From Candidatus Thorarchaeota archaeon (lineage in GTDB: Archaea; Asgardarchaeota; Thorarchaeia; Thorarchaeales; Thorarchaeaceae): DNA of 19,958 nucleotides. Below the pieces are notes generated by a model. It made no database searches and had not been told where the DNA came from. It saw only the letters and a program-made list of their open reading frames with translations. Position 1 is the first letter of the stretch. Each line of letters begins with the position of its first letter. A program made the translations under genes and the position numbers. The stretch lies in assembly GCA_048884965.1 (NCBI GenBank), contig JBHLQH010000046.1:1-19958 (forward strand), given 5' to 3'. Positions 13,335-19,956 of the stretch are shown piece after piece.

Positions 13335-14039
13335 TTAAGAATCTCGTGCAGCCAGATATGAACGGTTTCCGCCTTCAATCGCTTGTTCATGGGTGATCAA
13401 TGGTTGTGATATTTTAGCCAAAAGTTCCTGAGAAATATTCCCTTTCTCTATGAGCTGTCTTCCTGCAACCTCTGCTGCCTCGTATATCTCCATTGTCCTC
13501 TCATCACCCTGCTGGAGTTGCCCTGCATGTGGACGAATGATTGGTCCGATGAACTCGACATTGACGTTCTCTGCTATCTCCTTTACAATATGAGTGACAA
13601 CTTCGAAGTTGCCTACTTCATACCAGCCTCCAGAGCCAACGAATACAATCTTGGTAACGTTCACATTATCGTGCCATTTGGCACGTGTCCTTCCATCTTG
13701 AATGCTTAGCATAGGTTCGACTAGTGGCATTAGTCTATTCAGGAGGTTCTGGAATGCACCTGGAAGAGGTAGGTAGATCGGTGTTGCAAACACCAGAATC
13801 TCTGCCTCTCTTACCTTTGCATAGACTTGCTCCATCTCATCTGTGTGTATGCATACACCAACTTTCTCGAACCAACATTGGAAGTCTCCTATACAGTGCC
13901 TGATTTTGAGCTTCTGGGAAAAGAGGGTGTCTACAGATGCTCCTGCCTTTCTCATCCCATCCAGCAGTGGTGCTAGGATCTTGTGAGTATTCCCTTTCTC
14001 CATATTGGGACTCCCATTTATTGCAAGTACACTTGTCAT
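13335..14039 (-). CDS. Flavodoxin-fold NAD(P)H-dependent FMN reductase / iron-sulfur flavoprotein-like protein
   Basis: VLAINGSPNMEKGNT (FMN phosphate loop), CIGDFQCW...CIHTD, VFATPIY, LLNRL. GGTGA SD lies before ATG 14039. Confidence 0.88.
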   Translation of the reverse strand: MTSVLAINGSPNMEKGNTHKILAPLLDGMRKAGASVDTLFSQKLKIRHCIGDFQCWFEKVGVCIHTDEMEQVYAKVREAEILVFATPIYLPLPGAFQNLLNRLMPLVEPMLSIQDGRTRAKWHDNVNVTKIVFVGSGGWYEVGNFEVVTHIVKEIAENVNVEFIGPIIRPHAGQLQQGDERTMEIYEAAEVAGRQLIEKGNISQELLAKISQPLITHEQAIEGGNRSYLAARDS

Positions 14040-14164
14040 GTACATCACCACAACGATGTTATGGCTCTCAAGGAAGCAGTAGTTTGCTTTAAACTATAGT
14101 ATCTACATCCCTAGTACGCAGAACATTCAAGTGAGTCGTTCTGTCAGTTGGAGGATGAGATCAA

Positions 14165-14560
14165 ATGAATGAAGACTATCCTATCGTTGATCCCAAAACG
14201 ATGAACCAGATATGGAGGAAGATCTTACCACCTGAGGTGACACGGTGGGCTATCTTCAAGCATGGGACTATCGTCTTATGTCATGACAATGATAAGGATC
14301 CTAGGGAACATGGATTGCAAGTGTTGAAAGAGTGGGGTCCTCTGGCACCTGGTACCCCTTTAGGCGACTTCAATGTAACGCTTGCAGGAGCAGTGCCCGG
14401 TTGGGTTGTCGAGTACGCTCACGAGGACATCGGTTCCTATGTGAGTCCTGATGAGCTCAAGGATGCAGAAGATGACGTGTTAATGATAGGTCTCTATGGT
14501 AGAGCAAAGAGGCATGAGGATTTCCTTTCTCTGGAGATAATTCATGTTGAAGACCCATAA
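14165..14560 (+). CDS. Conserved hypothetical protein
   Basis: 131-aa ORF with GGAGG SD and conserved-looking motifs WAIFKHGTIV, WGP..PGTP.GDF, GWVV, YVSPDE, IGLYGRAKR, EIIHVED. Confidence 0.7.
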   Translation: MNEDYPIVDPKTMNQIWRKILPPEVTRWAIFKHGTIVLCHDNDKDPREHGLQVLKEWGPLAPGTPLGDFNVTLAGAVPGWVVEYAHEDIGSYVSPDELKDAEDDVLMIGLYGRAKRHEDFLSLEIIHVEDP

Positions 14561-14634
14561 GACATTCTCTGCAATTCTTTTTGCTATGGTGTAAATTAAA
14601 ATATACAAGAATTCACTGTTCCTTGGCGATTTGG

Positions 14635-16254
14635 ATGACAACTAGCGATGAAAGAGTTGAGGAACTTGCCAAGAGACTGATTGATGAGTTCCTTCGTGAT
14701 AATCCCACCTATGCAACCTTTATGGGAGTTCATGAATATGACGGACAGTTGGGCGACTTATCGCCTGCAGCTATTGAGCGGACCATACACCAGCTGAATC
14801 AGGCTCTAGAGGACTTGGCCCAAATTGATCCATCTGGACATTCAGAGGAAGGTATGATAAACAGAGAGATGTTTGAAGCTGGCATCGAATACCAGCTTTT
14901 CCAGTTTGAGGAATTGAAGACCTATGAGTCAGATGTCGATTTTGGCGGGTTCATCGGAATGGCTCTGTTCCCACTTTTCACAAGGGATTTTGCTCCTTTT
15001 GAAGAACGCATGATGGCCATTGCATCACGACTCGAAGGTATTCCTCTTGCATTTGATCAGTTCAAACGTACTATCACGAAGCCTGTGCACCTATGGACCC
15101 AGACTGCACTACAGTCCCTTCAGGGTATACCGGGTTTGATCCAATTGATTATCTCTGTGGCAGAGCAAAAGCTACAAGGGGAGGCACTAGTACGTCTACA
15201 AAACGCCGGAGAAATTGCTATTGATACACTGGCAGAGGTTCAAGCATGGCTTGAGGAACTCGCTCAAGATCACAGGGATTTTTGGTGTATCGGTGCCTAC
15301 AACTTCGAGAAGCTCATTCGCGTTCGAAGATTAGGGCTCACCCCTGCTGAGATTTTAAGAATTGGATTCAAATACCTCAAGCAGTTCGAAGGAGAGCTAA
15401 AAGAACTCGCTGGAAAGATATCTCCTGGGTCTTCTGTCGATCAAGTCCGAGAGATGATCAAGGACAATCATCCAAAGACGTTCGAGGATACGCTTGCGTA
15501 CTATCAACAGTGGGTGGAGAAGGCAAAACAATGGGTGATTGCCAACGACTTCGTTACTGTCAGAGAAGGCATATTGGATGTGATAGAGACACCTGCATTC
15601 TTAGCCCCTCTCCTCCCAACAGCTGCACTCGTACCTCCAGGATTCTTTGAGTCCTCGAAGAGAGGAGAGTATATTGTCACAAGACCCGCTGATGAGAAGA
15701 ACCTCAGAGAGCATTACTATGCAAGAATTCCAAACACATGCATCCATGAGGCATACCCGGGTCATTTCAATGAAGGATTAGCAAGTGCAGAGGCTCCTCT
15801 CTCACGACTTCTACTTGAAGGGTCAGAGATGGTTGAAGGCTGGGCTTTCTATTGCGAGCAAGTTTCGATTGATATGGGCTTCAATGACACCCCCGAGGCA
15901 CGATTCGCACAGACAAATGCGTTGCTCTTCAGAGCTGCTCGAATAATAGTGGATGTCAACCTTTCTTCTGGTCGAATGGGCTTCAATGAGGCTGTGAAGT
16001 TTCTTACGATAAAGACAGGCATGGCTGAAGCTAGCGCTATCGCTGAGGTTACACGATATACACAAACCCCTGGATATCCCCTCTCCTATTTACTGGGACG
16101 GCATCAGATTATGGACGCTAGAAATGAATTGGAAAACGAATTCGGAGAGCAATTCAATCAGAAATTGTTCCATGATGTGATTGTTTCCTCCGGAAGAGTC
16201 CCAATATCCTATATACCAAGACTTTATCGAATAGCCTCGAAGAGAAAGGTCTGA
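14635..16254 (+). CDS. DUF885-family protein (putative zinc metallopeptidase-like)
   Basis: NPTYATFMGVHEYD..L.DLS, HEAYPGH, EGWAFYCE, RAARIIVD and EVTRY...PGYPLSYLLG...FHD motifs. ATG 14635 is preferred. Confidence 0.92.
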   Translation: MTTSDERVEELAKRLIDEFLRDNPTYATFMGVHEYDGQLGDLSPAAIERTIHQLNQALEDLAQIDPSGHSEEGMINREMFEAGIEYQLFQFEELKTYESDVDFGGFIGMALFPLFTRDFAPFEERMMAIASRLEGIPLAFDQFKRTITKPVHLWTQTALQSLQGIPGLIQLIISVAEQKLQGEALVRLQNAGEIAIDTLAEVQAWLEELAQDHRDFWCIGAYNFEKLIRVRRLGLTPAEILRIGFKYLKQFEGELKELAGKISPGSSVDQVREMIKDNHPKTFEDTLAYYQQWVEKAKQWVIANDFVTVREGILDVIETPAFLAPLLPTAALVPPGFFESSKRGEYIVTRPADEKNLREHYYARIPNTCIHEAYPGHFNEGLASAEAPLSRLLLEGSEMVEGWAFYCEQVSIDMGFNDTPEARFAQTNALLFRAARIIVDVNLSSGRMGFNEAVKFLTIKTGMAEASAIAEVTRYTQTPGYPLSYLLGRHQIMDARNELENEFGEQFNQKLFHDVIVSSGRVPISYIPRLYRIASKRKV

Positions 16255-16260
16255 GTTTCT

Positions 16261-16301
16261 AAGAAAAAGAAAGGATTCCATAGCATCACGGCTATGGAAT
16301 C
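16261..16301 (-). terminator. Hairpin plus U-rich tract terminator of the ABC operon
   Basis: Perfect 11-bp stem GATTCCATAGC/GCTATGGAATC (16274-16284 and 16291-16301, 6-nt loop), followed on the minus strand by CTTTCTTTTTCTT. It starts 8 nt after the permease stop. Confidence 0.7.
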
Positions 16302-16309
16302 TCAGGCAC

Positions 16310-17593
16310 TTACTCGTTACGCAATGCATCAACTGGTTGAAGATTTGCGGCACGTCGAGCCGGATAGAGGGCGAAGACTACACTCACAACAATCCCAAAG
16401 AATAAGGCCATGAAGATGAGGTCCAGTGTAATCACAGGAGTGATTGTACCAAGAGAACCTAATGGGCTCTGACCACCTCCGCCCATTCCTACGCTGAACC
16501 CTCCTAACATTCCCGAGAGTAGCATTGCTATGATTCCACCGGTGAGGATCCCGAACACACCTCCAAAGATGCCAATCATCATAGCTTCTGATAGGAAGAC
16601 CATGAGCACTGTGCTCCCTTTCGCACCTAATGCTTTGAGAATACCAATCTCACGAGTTCGCTCCATGATGGACACAATCATGATGTTCATGATTCCAATT
16701 CCAGCCACAAGAAGCGAGATAGCCGCAATGCCTCCAAGTAACAGCTCAATTGTTCCTATCATTGTTGATAGCTGGTCTAGCATCGCGGTTGGAGATGTCA
16801 CTGTGGCTTCTCCGTCAAAGAGTGCTGAGATTCCACTTGTTACCAACTCTATGGTAGTGTCTGAGTCATCAGTCAATTGGGCCACGATGGAATTGACCTC
16901 TGATGTTTCAAAGAAGTCCACTGCTGTATCAATTGAAATATAGACGCCCATATCACTAGGTCCACCAAATGAGCTGCCAATCTCCTCTAGAATACCCACT
17001 ACGGTGACAGTCATATTTTTCTCAGTGCGAACTACTCCGTTGATGACTGTATACGAGATCAGTATCTCATCACCCACCTCCGCGAATAATGTTCCGTTGT
17101 CCCAAGGATCTGAAACCGAAGTCCCAATGACTGCGTCGGATGCCAAGGATGTAGAGGGAATCTCACCGCTTTGAGCTATGAATGTACTGCTATAGATTTC
17201 CTGATACGCTGCAAAATCAATACCAATCACACTGAGTGACAGTTCATACTCACTAGTGTTCAAAGTCACCTGCTTGCTTATCACTGGTGAAACGCGTTCG
17301 ACATACTCGAGAGATTCTATCAAATCTGTATCATTCACGTAGAGCGTAAAGTCAGAAGGCTGGGTACCTGCACCCGGTCTGATTGCGAAGTTCTGCGCAC
17401 TAACAGTGACTGTATCTGTCGAGAAGCCTTCGGTGAACTGATTTGTGATTGCTACTTCGAAACCTTGCGTGTAAGACATTAGAGCAACGATCGCAGCAAT
17501 TCCGATGACTATTCCCAGAGTCGTTAGACCTGAACGAACCTTTCGAAGACGGATTGATCCGAATGAGTATGAGAAGATATCACGGGTTCTCAT
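16310..17593 (-). CDS. ABC transporter permease, MacB/FtsX/LolC family
   Basis: RSGLTTLGIVIGIAAIV TM1, a large extracytoplasmic domain, IAAISLLVAGIGIMNIMIVSIMERTREIGILKALGA, and YPARRAANLQPVDALRNE. Confidence 0.95.
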   Translation of the reverse strand: MRTRDIFSYSFGSIRLRKVRSGLTTLGIVIGIAAIVALMSYTQGFEVAITNQFTEGFSTDTVTVSAQNFAIRPGAGTQPSDFTLYVNDTDLIESLEYVERVSPVISKQVTLNTSEYELSLSVIGIDFAAYQEIYSSTFIAQSGEIPSTSLASDAVIGTSVSDPWDNGTLFAEVGDEILISYTVINGVVRTEKNMTVTVVGILEEIGSSFGGPSDMGVYISIDTAVDFFETSEVNSIVAQLTDDSDTTIELVTSGISALFDGEATVTSPTAMLDQLSTMIGTIELLLGGIAAISLLVAGIGIMNIMIVSIMERTREIGILKALGAKGSTVLMVFLSEAMMIGIFGGVFGILTGGIIAMLLSGMLGGFSVGMGGGGQSPLGSLGTITPVITLDLIFMALFFGIVVSVVFALYPARRAANLQPVDALRNE

Positions 17594-18277
17594 CTATCTC
17601 ACCTCGTCTGCCGATACCAACCCATCGACCAATCTGATTTGCCGTCTTGCAGAAGCACCGACCTCAAGATCATGTGTAACGACGATAACCGTGACTCCCA
17701 TTTCCTGATTCAATCTACCAACGAGTTCCATCATCTCTACTGCAGTCTTCGTGTCAAGATTTCCTGTGGGCTCATCAAGCAGTAGGAAGCTGGGCTCTGC
17801 CACCAAAGCTCGCGCTACCGCTACTCGTTGGCGCTCGCCGCCACTGAGCTGAGATGGTCGATGGTCCATTCGGCCTTCCAGACCAACCTTTCTGAGCATG
17901 TCTTCTGCTCGATTCCGTCGCTCTTCTTTTGGTACTCCAGCAATCGTTAGAGGGAGTTCAACGTTGGCACGAGCGCTCAATCGAGATATAAGATTAAAGA
18001 ACTGGAAGACAAAGCCTACCCTGCGGCGAGTTTCAGCCAGTTTGTTGTCGTTTAGACTCGACACCTCTATTCCCTGTATCCGGATGCTTCCTTCTGAAGG
18101 TCTATCTAAGGCACCGATCATATTCAGAAGGGTAGATTTTCCGGACCCTGAAGGCCCAACAATAGCAATGAACTCACCCTGTTCAACTCTTACATCAACT
18201 CCTTGGAGCGCATGAACAGGCACCTCACCCATTTGATAGGTCTTCTTTATTCCTGTCAATTCAAGTACAGTATCCAT
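17594..18277 (-). CDS. ABC transporter ATP-binding protein, LolD/MacB type
   Basis: Walker A GPSGSGKST, GFVFQFFNL, signature LSGGERQRVAVARAL, Walker B LLLDEPTGNLD, H-loop VTHD. Its stop directly abuts the permease ATG. Start is ATG 18277 or GTG 18286. Confidence 0.96.
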   Translation of the reverse strand: MDTVLELTGIKKTYQMGEVPVHALQGVDVRVEQGEFIAIVGPSGSGKSTLLNMIGALDRPSEGSIRIQGIEVSSLNDNKLAETRRRVGFVFQFFNLISRLSARANVELPLTIAGVPKEERRNRAEDMLRKVGLEGRMDHRPSQLSGGERQRVAVARALVAEPSFLLLDEPTGNLDTKTAVEMMELVGRLNQEMGVTVIVVTHDLEVGASARRQIRLVDGLVSADEVR

Positions 18278-18336
18278 TTTCTTCACTTAGTCTAGAGGAA
18301 GGATTCCTCTTGTTAGATGAATGCCTTCGCGAATTG

Positions 18337-18401
18337 TATATAGGGTTAGACCGAAGTTAAACCGGAAAAAGGCCCAAATATCACCCAAATCTTGTCGAAT
18401 T
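18337..18401 (-). promoter_or_regulatory. ABC operon promoter: TATA box with an upstream 11-bp-period heptamer array
   Basis: TATATA at 18337-18342. Plus-strand heptamers CCGAAGT (18351), CCGGAAA (18362), CCCAAAT (18373), CCCAAAT (18384) and TCGAATT (18395) start exactly 11 bp apart. Confidence 0.65.
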
Positions 18402-18472
18402 TTCGAAGCAAAGAATTGAGGCGTACGTTCGCATAATCACTTATTACCACCTGTCAATCATCAAAGAAATCG

Positions 18473-18784
18473 ATGATAACCAAGAGGCTGCTCTGGTGGC
18501 TGCTTGCAGGAACCAGAGGTGGTGTCAATCGTGCTAGAATCATATTGGCATTGCATGAGTTCCCATCCAATGCTAATCAGCTAGCGGAGCAACTAAGCCT
18601 CGATTACAAGACAATTCGACATCATCTGGACGTTCTAGTTGAACATACGGTATTGATCCCTCAAGGAGAGGGGTATGGCACGATCTACTTTGTATCAGAT
18701 GATATTGAGAATAACTTTGAGGAATTCGAACAAATTTGGGAAAGAATTGGGAAAACAGGCTTTAAGGAAAAGAACAAGGTATAG
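18473..18784 (+). CDS. Winged-helix (ArsR-like) archaeal transcriptional regulator
   Basis: LLWWLLAGTRGGVNRARII, P.NANQLAEQLSLDYKTIRHHLDVL (HTH) and GEGYGTIYF (wing). Confidence 0.9.
   Translation: MITKRLLWWLLAGTRGGVNRARIILALHEFPSNANQLAEQLSLDYKTIRHHLDVLVEHTVLIPQGEGYGTIYFVSDDIENNFEEFEQIWERIGKTGFKEKNKV
18723..18766 (+). promoter_or_regulatory. Candidate internal promoter within the regulator gene: heptamer array plus TATA-like box
   Basis: AATTCGA (18723), ATTTGGG (18734) and AATTGGG (18745) at 11-bp period, then TTTAAG at 18761-18766, upstream of ATG 18795. Confidence 0.55.
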
Positions 18785-18794
18785 GTGCATTGAC

Positions 18795-19220
18795 ATGAAT
18801 AACAAACAGCTCACAGGATTGCTAATAGTGTGTATGGTGATTGCGGGGATAATGGGATATCTCATCGCGATAGTACTCCTACTTCCACTAATAGGTGCTC
18901 CATCCATCCCGACCATCATCCCACCTCTTGAAGTCGTCCAGTTCTTTGTGATTCAGAAGACGATTGTTTCCTTCATCAATACGGCTCTCATCCTATTCAC
19001 CTTGGGTGTATATCTCGACATCTATAGGACTATGAAGACAAGATTCACACTTGGTCTTGTGACAATGCTACTCCTACTATTGATGTATGCTGTATCATCG
19101 AATCCTATCATCCATGCACGTTTTGGATTTCAATCAATAGGTCTTGGTCCTTTTAGCATCCTCCCTGACATATTCACAACTGTTGCCATGCTAATTCTAT
19201 TCTATCTGAGCCTGGAGTGA
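18795..19220 (+). CDS. Small membrane protein (about 4 TM) following the wHTH regulator
   Basis: Hydrophobic segments with YLDIYRTMKTRFTLGL, SSNP and GLGPFSILPDIF..A...YLSLE. ATG 18795 lies 10 nt after the regulator stop, with an AGGTG SD. Confidence 0.8.
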   Translation: MNNKQLTGLLIVCMVIAGIMGYLIAIVLLLPLIGAPSIPTIIPPLEVVQFFVIQKTIVSFINTALILFTLGVYLDIYRTMKTRFTLGLVTMLLLLLMYAVSSNPIIHARFGFQSIGLGPFSILPDIFTTVAMLILFYLSLE

Positions 19221-19221
19221 T

Positions 19222-19956
19222 TTAGATTTTAGAAAGGATATCGATAATGCGAATCTTCAGAGGGTCTCTTGTACTACCTAGGAATTCATTGATTTTGGTT
19301 AGCCACTTTTTACACTCCTTGATACACTGGGAAAAGATGTCTTCACACCCTAATGCTTTTCCAACTGCTGGCAGATGCAGCAGTGTCTTCTCTAGCCAAT
19401 CCAAATATCCCTTATCATTTCCAACGGCGTGGACACGACTTTTCGAGAAATCTCCCTCTCCCGTTAGGAAGTCACAAAGGATGTCATATGAAGAAGTAAG
19501 ATGGTCGATATCCTGCCCTTTACTCTCATCTGCCTGACTATGAACAAGTCTGAATGGCAGGCGTTCTCCGTTCTTGAGCATCGAAGTGTACGATGACAAG
19601 ACCTTGATGAGAGCGTATGCGCATTTCGTTTCTTTCACCAAGATATCAAGGAATCCAAGATTATTCCATGTGGCAGGATCTGCAAATGAATGGCTTGTGA
19701 ACAACATTTCCAGATTTTGCACATCTTCATCATATTGTGGTTTAAGCCAATTTACAGCATAAGTAAGAGGAGTCGCCTTTCCTTGATGAACCAGTCCTGT
19801 GCCATTGGAGAAGCAACGTGCCACTTCTTCATGCATTCTTTGTCTAAGTACAAGGTCTAGGGTCATTGCAGAGAGGGGTGACAAAGAGTCTTTATTCTCT
19901 GCAAAGATCATATTCAGTCCATTGACTGGTCCTCGAATTAGCTGGTTGCTCCGCGT
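19222..19956 (-). CDS. Hypothetical soluble protein, C-terminal part (5' end probably outside window)
   Basis: The frame stays open upstream of ATG 19911 to the window edge (TRSNQLIRGPVNGLN-MIFAE...). No recognisable motif. Confidence 0.65.
   Translation of the reverse strand, partial: TRSNQLIRGPVNGLNMIFAENKDSLSPLSAMTLDLVLRQRMHEEVARCFSNGTGLVHQGKATPLTYAVNWLKPQYDEDVQNLEMLFTSHSFADPATWNNLGFLDILVKETKCAYALIKVLSSYTSMLKNGERLPFRLVHSQADESKGQDIDHLTSSYDILCDFLTGEGDFSKSRVHAVGNDKGYLDWLEKTLLHLPAVGKALGCEDIFSQCIKECKKWLTKINEFLGSTRDPLKIRIIDILSKI

Follow-up and report, generated by a model that had tools for sequence, protein, structure and literature searches.

A candidate regulatory cassette of an ArsR-fold regulator, a DUF8036 membrane protein, and phased heptamer arrays in Thorarchaeota and other archaea

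RESULTS AND DISCUSSION

In a 19,958-nucleotide (nt) stretch of DNA from a Candidatus Thorarchaeota archaeon (here called the window; contig C46 of a 4.09-Mb metagenome-assembled genome that is 96% complete), an operon for a MacB-type ATP-binding cassette (ABC) exporter lies divergent from the gene of a small winged helix-turn-helix (wHTH) regulator, which is followed by the gene of a DUF8036 membrane protein. The exporter operon and the membrane protein gene are each preceded by ATTTGGG-like heptamers that are repeated in direct orientation with an 11-bp period. On balance, comparison with related genomes indicates that this locus is probably one copy of a regulatory cassette of several archaeal phyla, made up of an ArsR-fold wHTH activator, a DUF8036 partner, and a phased array. 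More tentatively, the cassette may represent an ancient, kinase-free form of envelope signaling in Asgard archaea, methanogens, Thermoplasmatota, and others. It would comprise an activator, an obligate DUF8036 sensor or anti-activator, and an enhancer of 7-bp units and 4-bp spacers (7+4) locked 8 nt from the TATA box; codons of the regulator gene would double as the partner's enhancer and promoter, and the outputs would have been swapped repeatedly. The sequencing runs that hold this stretch contain sediment-metagenome DNA contigs only, and none is listed as RNA.

Gene calls and Pfam matches located every element of the arrangement described in an initial annotation made from the sequence alone. 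The wHTH gene (18473..18784, plus strand; 103 amino acids; Pfam HTH_5) is present in single copy in the genome. The gene for the 141-amino-acid DUF8036 protein (18795..19220, plus strand; four transmembrane helices; PF26119 annotation) begins 10 nt past the wHTH stop codon. On the other side of a 186-bp divergent spacer lies the gene for a LolD/MacB-like ABC ATPase (17594..18277/18286, minus strand; Pfam ABC_tran, 6e-38; NCBIfam LolD/MacB/FtsE type), whose start is likely the ATG at 18277, because the N termini of its orthologues read M-x-T-V-LE. The second gene of this array-linked operon encodes a MacB-type permease of 427 amino acids (16310..17593, minus strand; Pfam MacB_PCD, 3.4e-24, and FtsX, 1.5e-17), with NCBIfam MacB/LolCE matches under the equivalog cutoffs. 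The best NCBIfam models of the two proteins were LolD and MacB, both likewise under their equivalog cutoffs, and the features of a MacB-type (type VII) exporter are all present, namely, a MacB periplasmic core, an FtsX-type transmembrane bundle, and a LolD/MacB-like ATPase. A Pfam scan detected no histidine kinase or receiver domain in any gene of 13335-19911, in keeping with the earlier description of the module as kinase free. The 229-amino-acid open reading frame (ORF) convergent with the DUF8036 gene (19222-19911, minus strand) has no Pfam or NCBIfam match and was seen, among the 80 loci analyzed below, solely in the closest relative, L041 (72% identity).

Phased array upstream of the ABC operon

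The array ahead of the ABC operon occupies 18351..18390 (minus strand) and is a candidate operator or upstream activating sequence of the wHTH regulator. Its four heptamers read, in minus-strand order, ATTTGGG (18384-18390), tgat, ATTTGGG (18373-18379), cctt, TTTCCGG (18362-18368), ttta, ACTTCGG (18351-18357). The last heptamer is separated by an 8-nt spacer (tctaaccc; 18343..18350, minus strand), at the position of the B recognition element (BRE), from the TATATA box of the operon (18337..18342, minus strand). From the usual TATA spacing of -26/27 (PMC5512572), transcription of the ABC operon is predicted to start near 18313 on the minus strand. Around the predicted 5' end of the ABC mRNA lies a perfect 7-bp inverted repeat (AGAGGAA gga TTCCTCT; 18294-18310), which may form a leader hairpin; its arms differ yet stay complementary at the same place in L041 (GAGGA/TCCTC) and L046 (GAGAGA/TCTCTC).

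This layout has left a footprint in related genomes. Within the Thorarchaeota clade whose wHTH proteins are at least 70% identical, the ABC/MacB operon lies upstream of the wHTH gene on the opposite strand in all eight loci that extend far enough. In six of these (L041, L043, and L045-L048), the two genes share a divergent spacer that keeps four phased heptamers (consensus, ATTTGGG-n4-ATTTGGG-n4-TTCTTGG-n4-TTCTCGG), the 8-nt interval, and TATATA or TATATG at the same place, while the surrounding sequence diverges. As four units persist amid diverging flanks, the two degenerate promoter-proximal heptamers of the window are genuine. A fifth heptamer at 18395-18401 was considered and rejected, as it is not conserved in the orthologues. 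Closer to the wHTH gene, a conserved A/T block, ATAATCACTTATTA (18422..18436, plus strand), is probably the TATA region of the wHTH promoter; in the orthologues its reverse complement, TAATAAGTGATTAT, and variants of it are found 25 to 45 nt ahead of the wHTH start.

Such arrays are rare. With up to two mismatches, ATTTGGG-N4-ATTTGGG matched the window twice, both times at this locus (expected, 0.13; none of 200 shuffles reached 2). A genome-wide scan for this pattern had been suggested with the initial annotation as a check; with up to one mismatch, it returned three matches in 4.09 Mb, two of them here and the third in the promoter of an unlinked but related gene, a candidate regulon member described below. 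A three-slot heptamer matrix ranked the ABC array first in the genome (28.1) and the unlinked array, on contig C39, second (27.8); the next match scored 19.3, and nothing exceeded 18 in the reversed-genome control. Weaker arrays scoring about 19 on contigs C2, C4, C5, and C6 were taken as chance matches, being either within ORFs or without a TATA box.

Array within the regulator gene

The array ahead of the DUF8036 gene is embedded in the 3' part of the wHTH coding sequence (18723..18751, plus strand) and consists of a weak AATTCGA followed by ATTTGGG (18734-18740), aaag, and AATTGGG (18745-18751). It scored 18.8 against the matrix (genome rank 7). As first described, the heptamers run in the sense direction and end 9 nt before a TATA-like TTTAAG (18761..18766, plus strand), which stands 28 nt before the DUF8036 ATG at 18795. 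This position predicts a leaderless or very short-leader transcript starting near 18790, at or just before that ATG. In the Thorarchaeota orthologues, an A/T-rich hexamer (TTTAAG, TTAAAG, ATAAAG, ATATAA, or TATAGG) likewise occurs 8 to 9 nt past the second internal heptamer.

As the heptamers encode the peptide I-W-E-R-I-G (ATT-TGG-G, I88-W89; [A]-ATT-GGG, I92-G93), and as I88 and W89 are invariant in the protein, peptide conservation alone could yield the internal motif. It would then be a by-product of I-W-x-x-I-G, with only the intergenic arrays functional and the membrane protein gene transcribed by read-through from the wHTH promoter. The invariant residues force AT[TCA]-TGG, and the 10-nt gap with a Shine-Dalgarno-like GGTG before the membrane protein gene fits read-through. 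The synonymous positions are nevertheless constrained when other Gly and Ile columns of the same genes serve as the internal comparison. In 23 Thorarchaeota genes, Gly93 is encoded by GGG in 20 of 21 cases versus 9 of 115 at five invariant Gly columns (p=4e-16), and Ile92 is encoded by ATT in 18 of 20 cases versus 21 of 56 for other Ile residues (p=5e-5). The GGG bias also holds in 58 genes from other phyla (27/34 versus 51/285 control Gly codons; p=8e-13). Together with the A/T-rich box, which keeps the 8- to 9-nt register of the intergenic arrays, these biases make a mere by-product very unlikely. The internal array is under selection at the DNA level, and the 3' end of the regulator gene very probably doubles as a regulatory site for the partner gene.

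Unlinked gene for a GT-C-fold protein

The third array of the genome, on contig C39, reads ATTTGGG tttg ATTTGGG tctc AATTTGG and is followed after 8 nt by TATATA and 20 nt further by an ATG. The gene behind it encodes a membrane protein of 504 amino acids with multiple transmembrane helices (G000:C39:16156-17670). This protein is a full-length orthologue (40 to 45% identity; E, 1e-110 to 1e-128) of the product of a gene of about 500 codons that, in seven loci from six other genera of the same family, directly follows the wHTH/DUF8036 pair. In those seven loci the same array occupies the intergenic gap before the gene, for example as ATTTCGG tatg ATTTGGT atag ATTTGGG tatg ATTTCGG, 8 nt, TATATA. 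The unlinked orthologues in G003 and G006, two genomes of the same genus, also bear the array. The array has thus been kept although the gene has parted from the pair in this genus, as expected of a regulon member. Among 37 genomes of the family, 12 hold both the wHTH gene and this gene, 19 lack both, and 3 each hold just the one or just the other (p=1e-4, although relatedness makes these genomes nonindependent; two of the exceptions have a completeness of 74 to 80%). Synteny and this phyletic pattern suggest that the array-linked genes belong to one regulon.

The 504-amino-acid protein has no Pfam family, and its homologues, which likewise bear no Pfam annotation, are limited to Asgard archaea. 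Its AlphaFold2 (AF2) model (predicted local distance difference test score [pLDDT], 89.6; predicted template modeling score [pTM], 0.90) has the membrane fold of glycosyltransferase C (GT-C) enzymes, judging from a Foldseek search in which the top 22 PDB matches were all of this class (AglB, STT3, PglB, AftA, ArnT, and Pmt4; probability, 1.0; TM-score, 0.34 to 0.46). Two orthologues have PMT_2 matches below the threshold (E, 0.002; 18.8 bits versus a cutoff of 26.1). D162, which may be the catalytic acid that GT-C enzymes have in their first outer loop, is invariant. A remnant at G013:C26:52427-52709 (L021/L038) consists of the first 55 residues of a wHTH homologue and, within about 100 nt, a match to the last 60 or so residues of the GT-C-fold protein, and it looks like what would remain after loss of the DUF8036 gene and the greater part of the third gene.

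Occurrence in other archaea

A degenerate-pattern scan of species-representative genomes found at least 579 relatives of the wHTH protein, of which the best 80 loci were analyzed. These are from Thorarchaeota, Methanobacteria, Methanomicrobiales, Methanosarcinales/ANME-2, Methanocellales, Thermoplasmatota, Hydrothermarchaeales, and Bathyarchaeia. A complete wHTH gene is present in 77 loci, and in 75 of them its stop codon is directly followed by an ORF of 75 or more amino acids, nearly always with 3 or 4 predicted transmembrane helices; across phyla, the two genes overlap or are separated by 0 to 40 nt. The co-occurrence of regulator and membrane protein genes, which had been proposed as a check on homologues, was thus borne out.

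The pair recurs together with the layout of three to five heptamers, 8 nt, and a TATA box in Thorarchaeota, Methanomicrobiales, Methanosarcinales/ANME-2, Methanobacteria, and Thermoplasmatota. With a matrix built from Thorarchaeota heptamers only, 41 of 75 loci showed arrays scoring up to 31.7 on the sense strand directly past the DUF8036 stop codon, compared with a background rate of 0.0019 in windows of equal size; about ten further loci have slightly irregular arrays. Four heptamers are present in 43 of 62 arrays, three in 15, and five in 4. The proximal heptamer (ATTCTGG/ACTTCGG type; consensus, ATTCTGG) contains GG in all 62. Every ABC and GT-C array of Thorarchaeota has the 8-nt spacer, and in most of the 62 arrays both this spacer and a TATA-like box are visible, the latter being TATATA, CATATA, TATCTC, or TTTTTAAA, depending on the lineage. 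In G033, ATTTGGGCCCAAAT upstream of the wHTH gene was considered as a palindromic operator and rejected, as it belongs to an array of direct repeats that runs on the opposite strand. At both the ABC operon and the DUF8036 gene, the claim that phased heptamers tied to the wHTH regulator stand in the sense direction directly upstream of BRE and TATA, in activator-like geometry, therefore now has comparative evidence behind it.

The genes behind the arrays vary by lineage, and all encode envelope or secreted proteins. The usual output is the GT-C-fold protein in most Thorarchaeota and secreted proteins in methanogens. A MacB permease with an ABC ATPase is array linked in Thorarchaeota, Methanobacterium, and Thermoplasmatota; besides the GT-C-fold protein, other array-linked products are secreted proteins of about 140 and of 600 to 830 amino acids and a PKD/FG-GAP surface protein of 1016 amino acids. 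In some Thermoplasmatota and Methanomicrobiales, two arrays lie a few kilobases apart, each before the gene of a large secreted protein (L083:5885/9018, L086:5829/8112, and L091:1307/4326), so a cassette can apparently drive several neighboring promoters.

Another factor might bind the arrays, or they might be a general promoter feature of these lineages that lies near the wHTH gene by chance. This can scarcely be credited, since the genome has only three strong arrays, each linked to the cassette either by where it lies or by gene order in relatives, and since arrays accompany the wHTH-DUF8036 pair in five archaeal lineages of four phyla.

Regulator and proposed mode of action

The wHTH protein matches Pfam HTH_5 with 26.5 bits (cutoff, 22), and its AF2 model (pLDDT, 87.7) has ArsR/SmtB topology (a1-a2-a3-a4-b-b-a5). 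Foldseek placed it closest to CzrA, SmtB, HlyU, and CadC (TM-score, 0.6 to 0.68), with SqrR also among the best matches; sequence matches to solved structures were weak. The N-terminal WWL-AG-xGG motif is invariant in the alignment, and the recognition helix (Y45-K-T-x-R-x-H51) is as invariant as the heptamer motif. The known ArsR sensing sites are all missing, since the 103 residues contain no Cys, no His in helix 5 (residues 76 to 100), and no separate ligand domain. The protein scored below the NCBIfam metalloregulator cutoff (25.7 versus 55). Furthermore, ArsR proteins typically act at an imperfect inverted repeat overlapping the promoter, whereas the candidate site here is a direct-repeat array upstream of TATA. 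Archaeal "ArsR family" relatives form 694 clusters at 50% identity (E<=1e-10), and the clade of this regulator is one specific part of them. More distant relatives (P0385, P0402, P0368, P0376, P0396, P0387, P0295, and P0401) are mostly fused to strings of PAS domains; P0295 has a fused domain resembling diadenylate cyclase by eye, and P0401 has two C-terminal transmembrane helices that are not DUF8036. These fusions are one-component forms of the module and fit a DNA-binding output unit that is fed by an attached or separate sensor. No fused wHTH-DUF8036 protein was found among the long matches inspected.

There is a fairly strong case from sequence comparison that the wHTH protein reads the heptamers, each 11-bp unit being contacted by a single domain from the same helix face. 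It would bind them head to tail, as in the 7+4 layout of the Pho box, and would help TFB/TBP to load, like EarA, Ptr2, and TFB-RF1. That it activates is most likely, given the position of the array, which abuts the BRE from upstream. In this genome it would drive three promoters, those of the MacB-type ABC operon, the DUF8036 gene, and the unlinked GT-C-fold gene on C39. DUF8036 would sense a membrane or envelope cue and hold or release the regulator at the membrane, as SdpI does with SdpR; since the regulator would also drive DUF8036, the circuit would contain feedback.

The same parts could work with the opposite sign. The wHTH protein would then be an SdpR-like repressor that blocks TFB at the BRE, and DUF8036 would sequester it upon a signal, derepressing the outputs and itself. 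Proteins with the ArsR/SmtB fold found by Foldseek are typically repressors, the last heptamer ends 8 nt from TATA and thus abuts the BRE, the SdpR/SdpI logic is established (PMC2910880), and the regulator weakly matches the NCBIfam SdpR autorepressor model NF033789 (20.6 bits; cutoff, 100; E, 3e-4). However, archaeal repressors typically sit on TATA/BRE or on the start site (PMC5512572), whereas the array reaches 40 to 50 bp upstream and never extends over TATA or the predicted start. The strict sense orientation and the fixed 8-nt register in all phyla fit contact with the basal machinery better than occlusion, and as the wHTH gene usually lacks an array upstream of itself, it is not a classic autorepressor. 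We therefore consider a repressor rather unlikely, though worth keeping in view, and retain the activator reading.

Several observations weigh against this reading. Classical ArsR/SmtB proteins are dimers that repress from inverted repeats and do not activate from direct repeats. Only two heptamers of the internal array are good, its TATA-like box is weak, and co-transcription alone could explain DUF8036 expression because of the short gap and the Shine-Dalgarno-like sequence that follow the wHTH stop codon. DUF8036 has no detectable homology to SdpI. Across 61 relatives, the two-heptamer pattern is noisy, with 3.0 matches per genome with the wHTH gene versus 0.8 without it (control pattern, about 0.2 per genome). 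Lastly, in G003 and G006, the closest sampled relatives of the same genus, the array is absent and a PadR gene heads the ABC operon. This 254-amino-acid PadR-domain protein is encoded in the orientation of the ABC genes, between the operon and the wHTH gene (L023:2022-2786 in G006 and L024:8506-9270 in G003; L040 and L042 are these same contigs of G006 and G003, respectively). The link to the ABC operon is therefore lineage specific, and within a single genus regulation of the exporter has apparently been rewired to a PadR-type protein. The MacB-type exporter thus stands as an output of the circuit insofar as it recurs behind arrays in three phyla, but it is one of several interchangeable outputs rather than a fixed component. 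In G003, the MacB permease orthologue is split into two overlapping ORFs with X residues in the translation (L024:9988-11230), which probably reflects masked or ambiguous bases and not a real frameshift.

DUF8036 membrane protein

DUF8036 (PF26119) is an archaea-only family. It is annotated on a protein identical to that of the window (P0121) and on 17 of 17 homologues, and the Atlas clusters of the membrane protein are 98 to 100% DUF8036. The name comes from these precomputed annotations; the protein had no Pfam match at E<=0.01, the SdpI family included, in a Pfam copy that lacks the PF26119 model. Alignment revealed a conserved core of three transmembrane helices with a basic loop, Y-R-x-x-K-S/T-x-F-T-L-G-L, which by the positive-inside rule would face the cytoplasm. 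Literature searches for DUF8036/PF26119 and for ArsR, MacB, and archaea together found nothing on the family or on the wHTH clade. Complex prediction for the wHTH protein with the DUF8036 core (residues 50 to 141) returned 0.00 in both runs, and the predictor gave no verdict. In Haloferax volcanii, HVO_B0192/B0193, a pair of a transmembrane protein and a DUF7521 regulator, is strongly induced in a quorum-sensing mutant (10.1101/2025.11.10.687552). One weakly similar Atlas cluster (score, 0.77; lead threshold, 0.9) has DUF7521 annotated on 11% of its members. The pair may be a haloarchaeal counterpart and is mentioned as a lead only.

The near-invariant pairing and the lack of a sensor in the regulator suggest, by analogy, that DUF8036 most likely controls the wHTH protein at the membrane. 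Alternatively, DUF8036 could be a coregulated envelope protein that works with the outputs and is no signaling partner, the wHTH protein sensing the cue directly. DUF8036 has an array-type promoter of its own like the other outputs, and sister wHTH proteins have cytoplasmic PAS domains fused to them for sensing. Yet the pair is kept in nearly all complete loci while the outputs swap freely, as is typical of sensor/regulator cassettes, and the 103-residue regulator, without ligand domain, Cys, or helix-5 His, offers none of the sensing sites known for ArsR proteins. A purely effector role for DUF8036 is therefore unlikely.

Relation to known systems

The initial annotation knew of no characterized example of such a circuit, but an analogue exists in Bacillus subtilis, where the ArsR-type autorepressor SdpR is sequestered by SdpI, a membrane protein of the same operon (PMC2910880). 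As in that system, the gene of a small ArsR-fold regulator lies directly upstream of the gene of a small multipass membrane protein, no kinase is involved, and the pair would be subject to feedback; the membrane partner is thought to sequester the regulator there, and the same is proposed here. In contrast, SdpR represses, while the placement of the arrays here suits an activator that binds upstream. Furthermore, the cassette is archaeal, uses a direct-repeat array, and is linked to varied envelope genes, while SdpR/SdpI controls a toxin-immunity gene. By sequence, the wHTH protein is not of the SdpR family and the membrane protein is not of the SdpI family.

Archaeal activators bind directly upstream of the BRE, where EarA has four 6-bp sites (PMC5512572). 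The several short sites directly upstream of BRE/TATA, and the TFB or TBP recruitment proposed here, resemble those of EarA (Methanococcus maripaludis), Ptr2 (Methanocaldococcus jannaschii), and TFB-RF1 (Pyrococcus furiosus). However, those factors belong to different protein families (the wHTH protein is not homologous to the Lrp-type Ptr2) and have no obligate membrane partner. Moreover, the heptamers here keep strict 7+4-bp phasing and end at a constant 8 nt from TATA, and one array lies inside the coding sequence of the regulator.

Direct repeats of a 7-bp core and a 4-bp spacer are otherwise known from the Pho box, which is read head to tail by PhoB/OmpR-family winged helices upstream of the promoter. 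The arrays share this 7+4 direct-repeat design, its 11-bp period, and its location upstream of the promoter; unlike the Pho box system, the cassette has no receiver domain or kinase, an ArsR/SmtB instead of an OmpR fold, and archaeal basal machinery. With the metalloregulators CzrA, SmtB, and CadC the wHTH protein shares its fold, but it has no Cys and no helix-5 His/Asp ligands, its candidate site is a direct-repeat array versus their 12-2-12 inverted repeat, and the sign of regulation is probably opposite. Like bacterial MacB/BceAB-type modules with two-component control, such as BceRS-BceAB, the locus places a type VII (MacB_PCD plus FtsX) ABC exporter beside a dedicated, envelope-linked regulator. 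In contrast to those modules, neither a histidine kinase nor a response regulator is present, the exporter shares its place with several alternative outputs, and a link to antimicrobial peptides is not indicated. The proposed working principle would thus combine likenesses to SdpRI, EarA/Ptr2, and the Pho box in a protein that keeps the ArsR/SmtB fold without its sensing-site and operator features.

Implications

To our knowledge, operator, regulon, and signal path have all been defined for very few transcription factors of archaea, and we know of little on archaeal transmembrane signal transduction outside two-component systems and chemotaxis. The analysis yields a cross-phylum binding-site model, identifies a conserved pair of proteins, and predicts which envelope genes form the regulon; cultivable methanogen lineages carry the cassette. 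The internal array would be a clear example of regulatory DNA inside a coding sequence. If the proposal is true, it would give a role to DUF8036 and to one clade of the archaeal "ArsR family" annotations. It also suggests that the MacB-type exporters and the GT-C enzyme of Asgard archaea may respond to an envelope cue.

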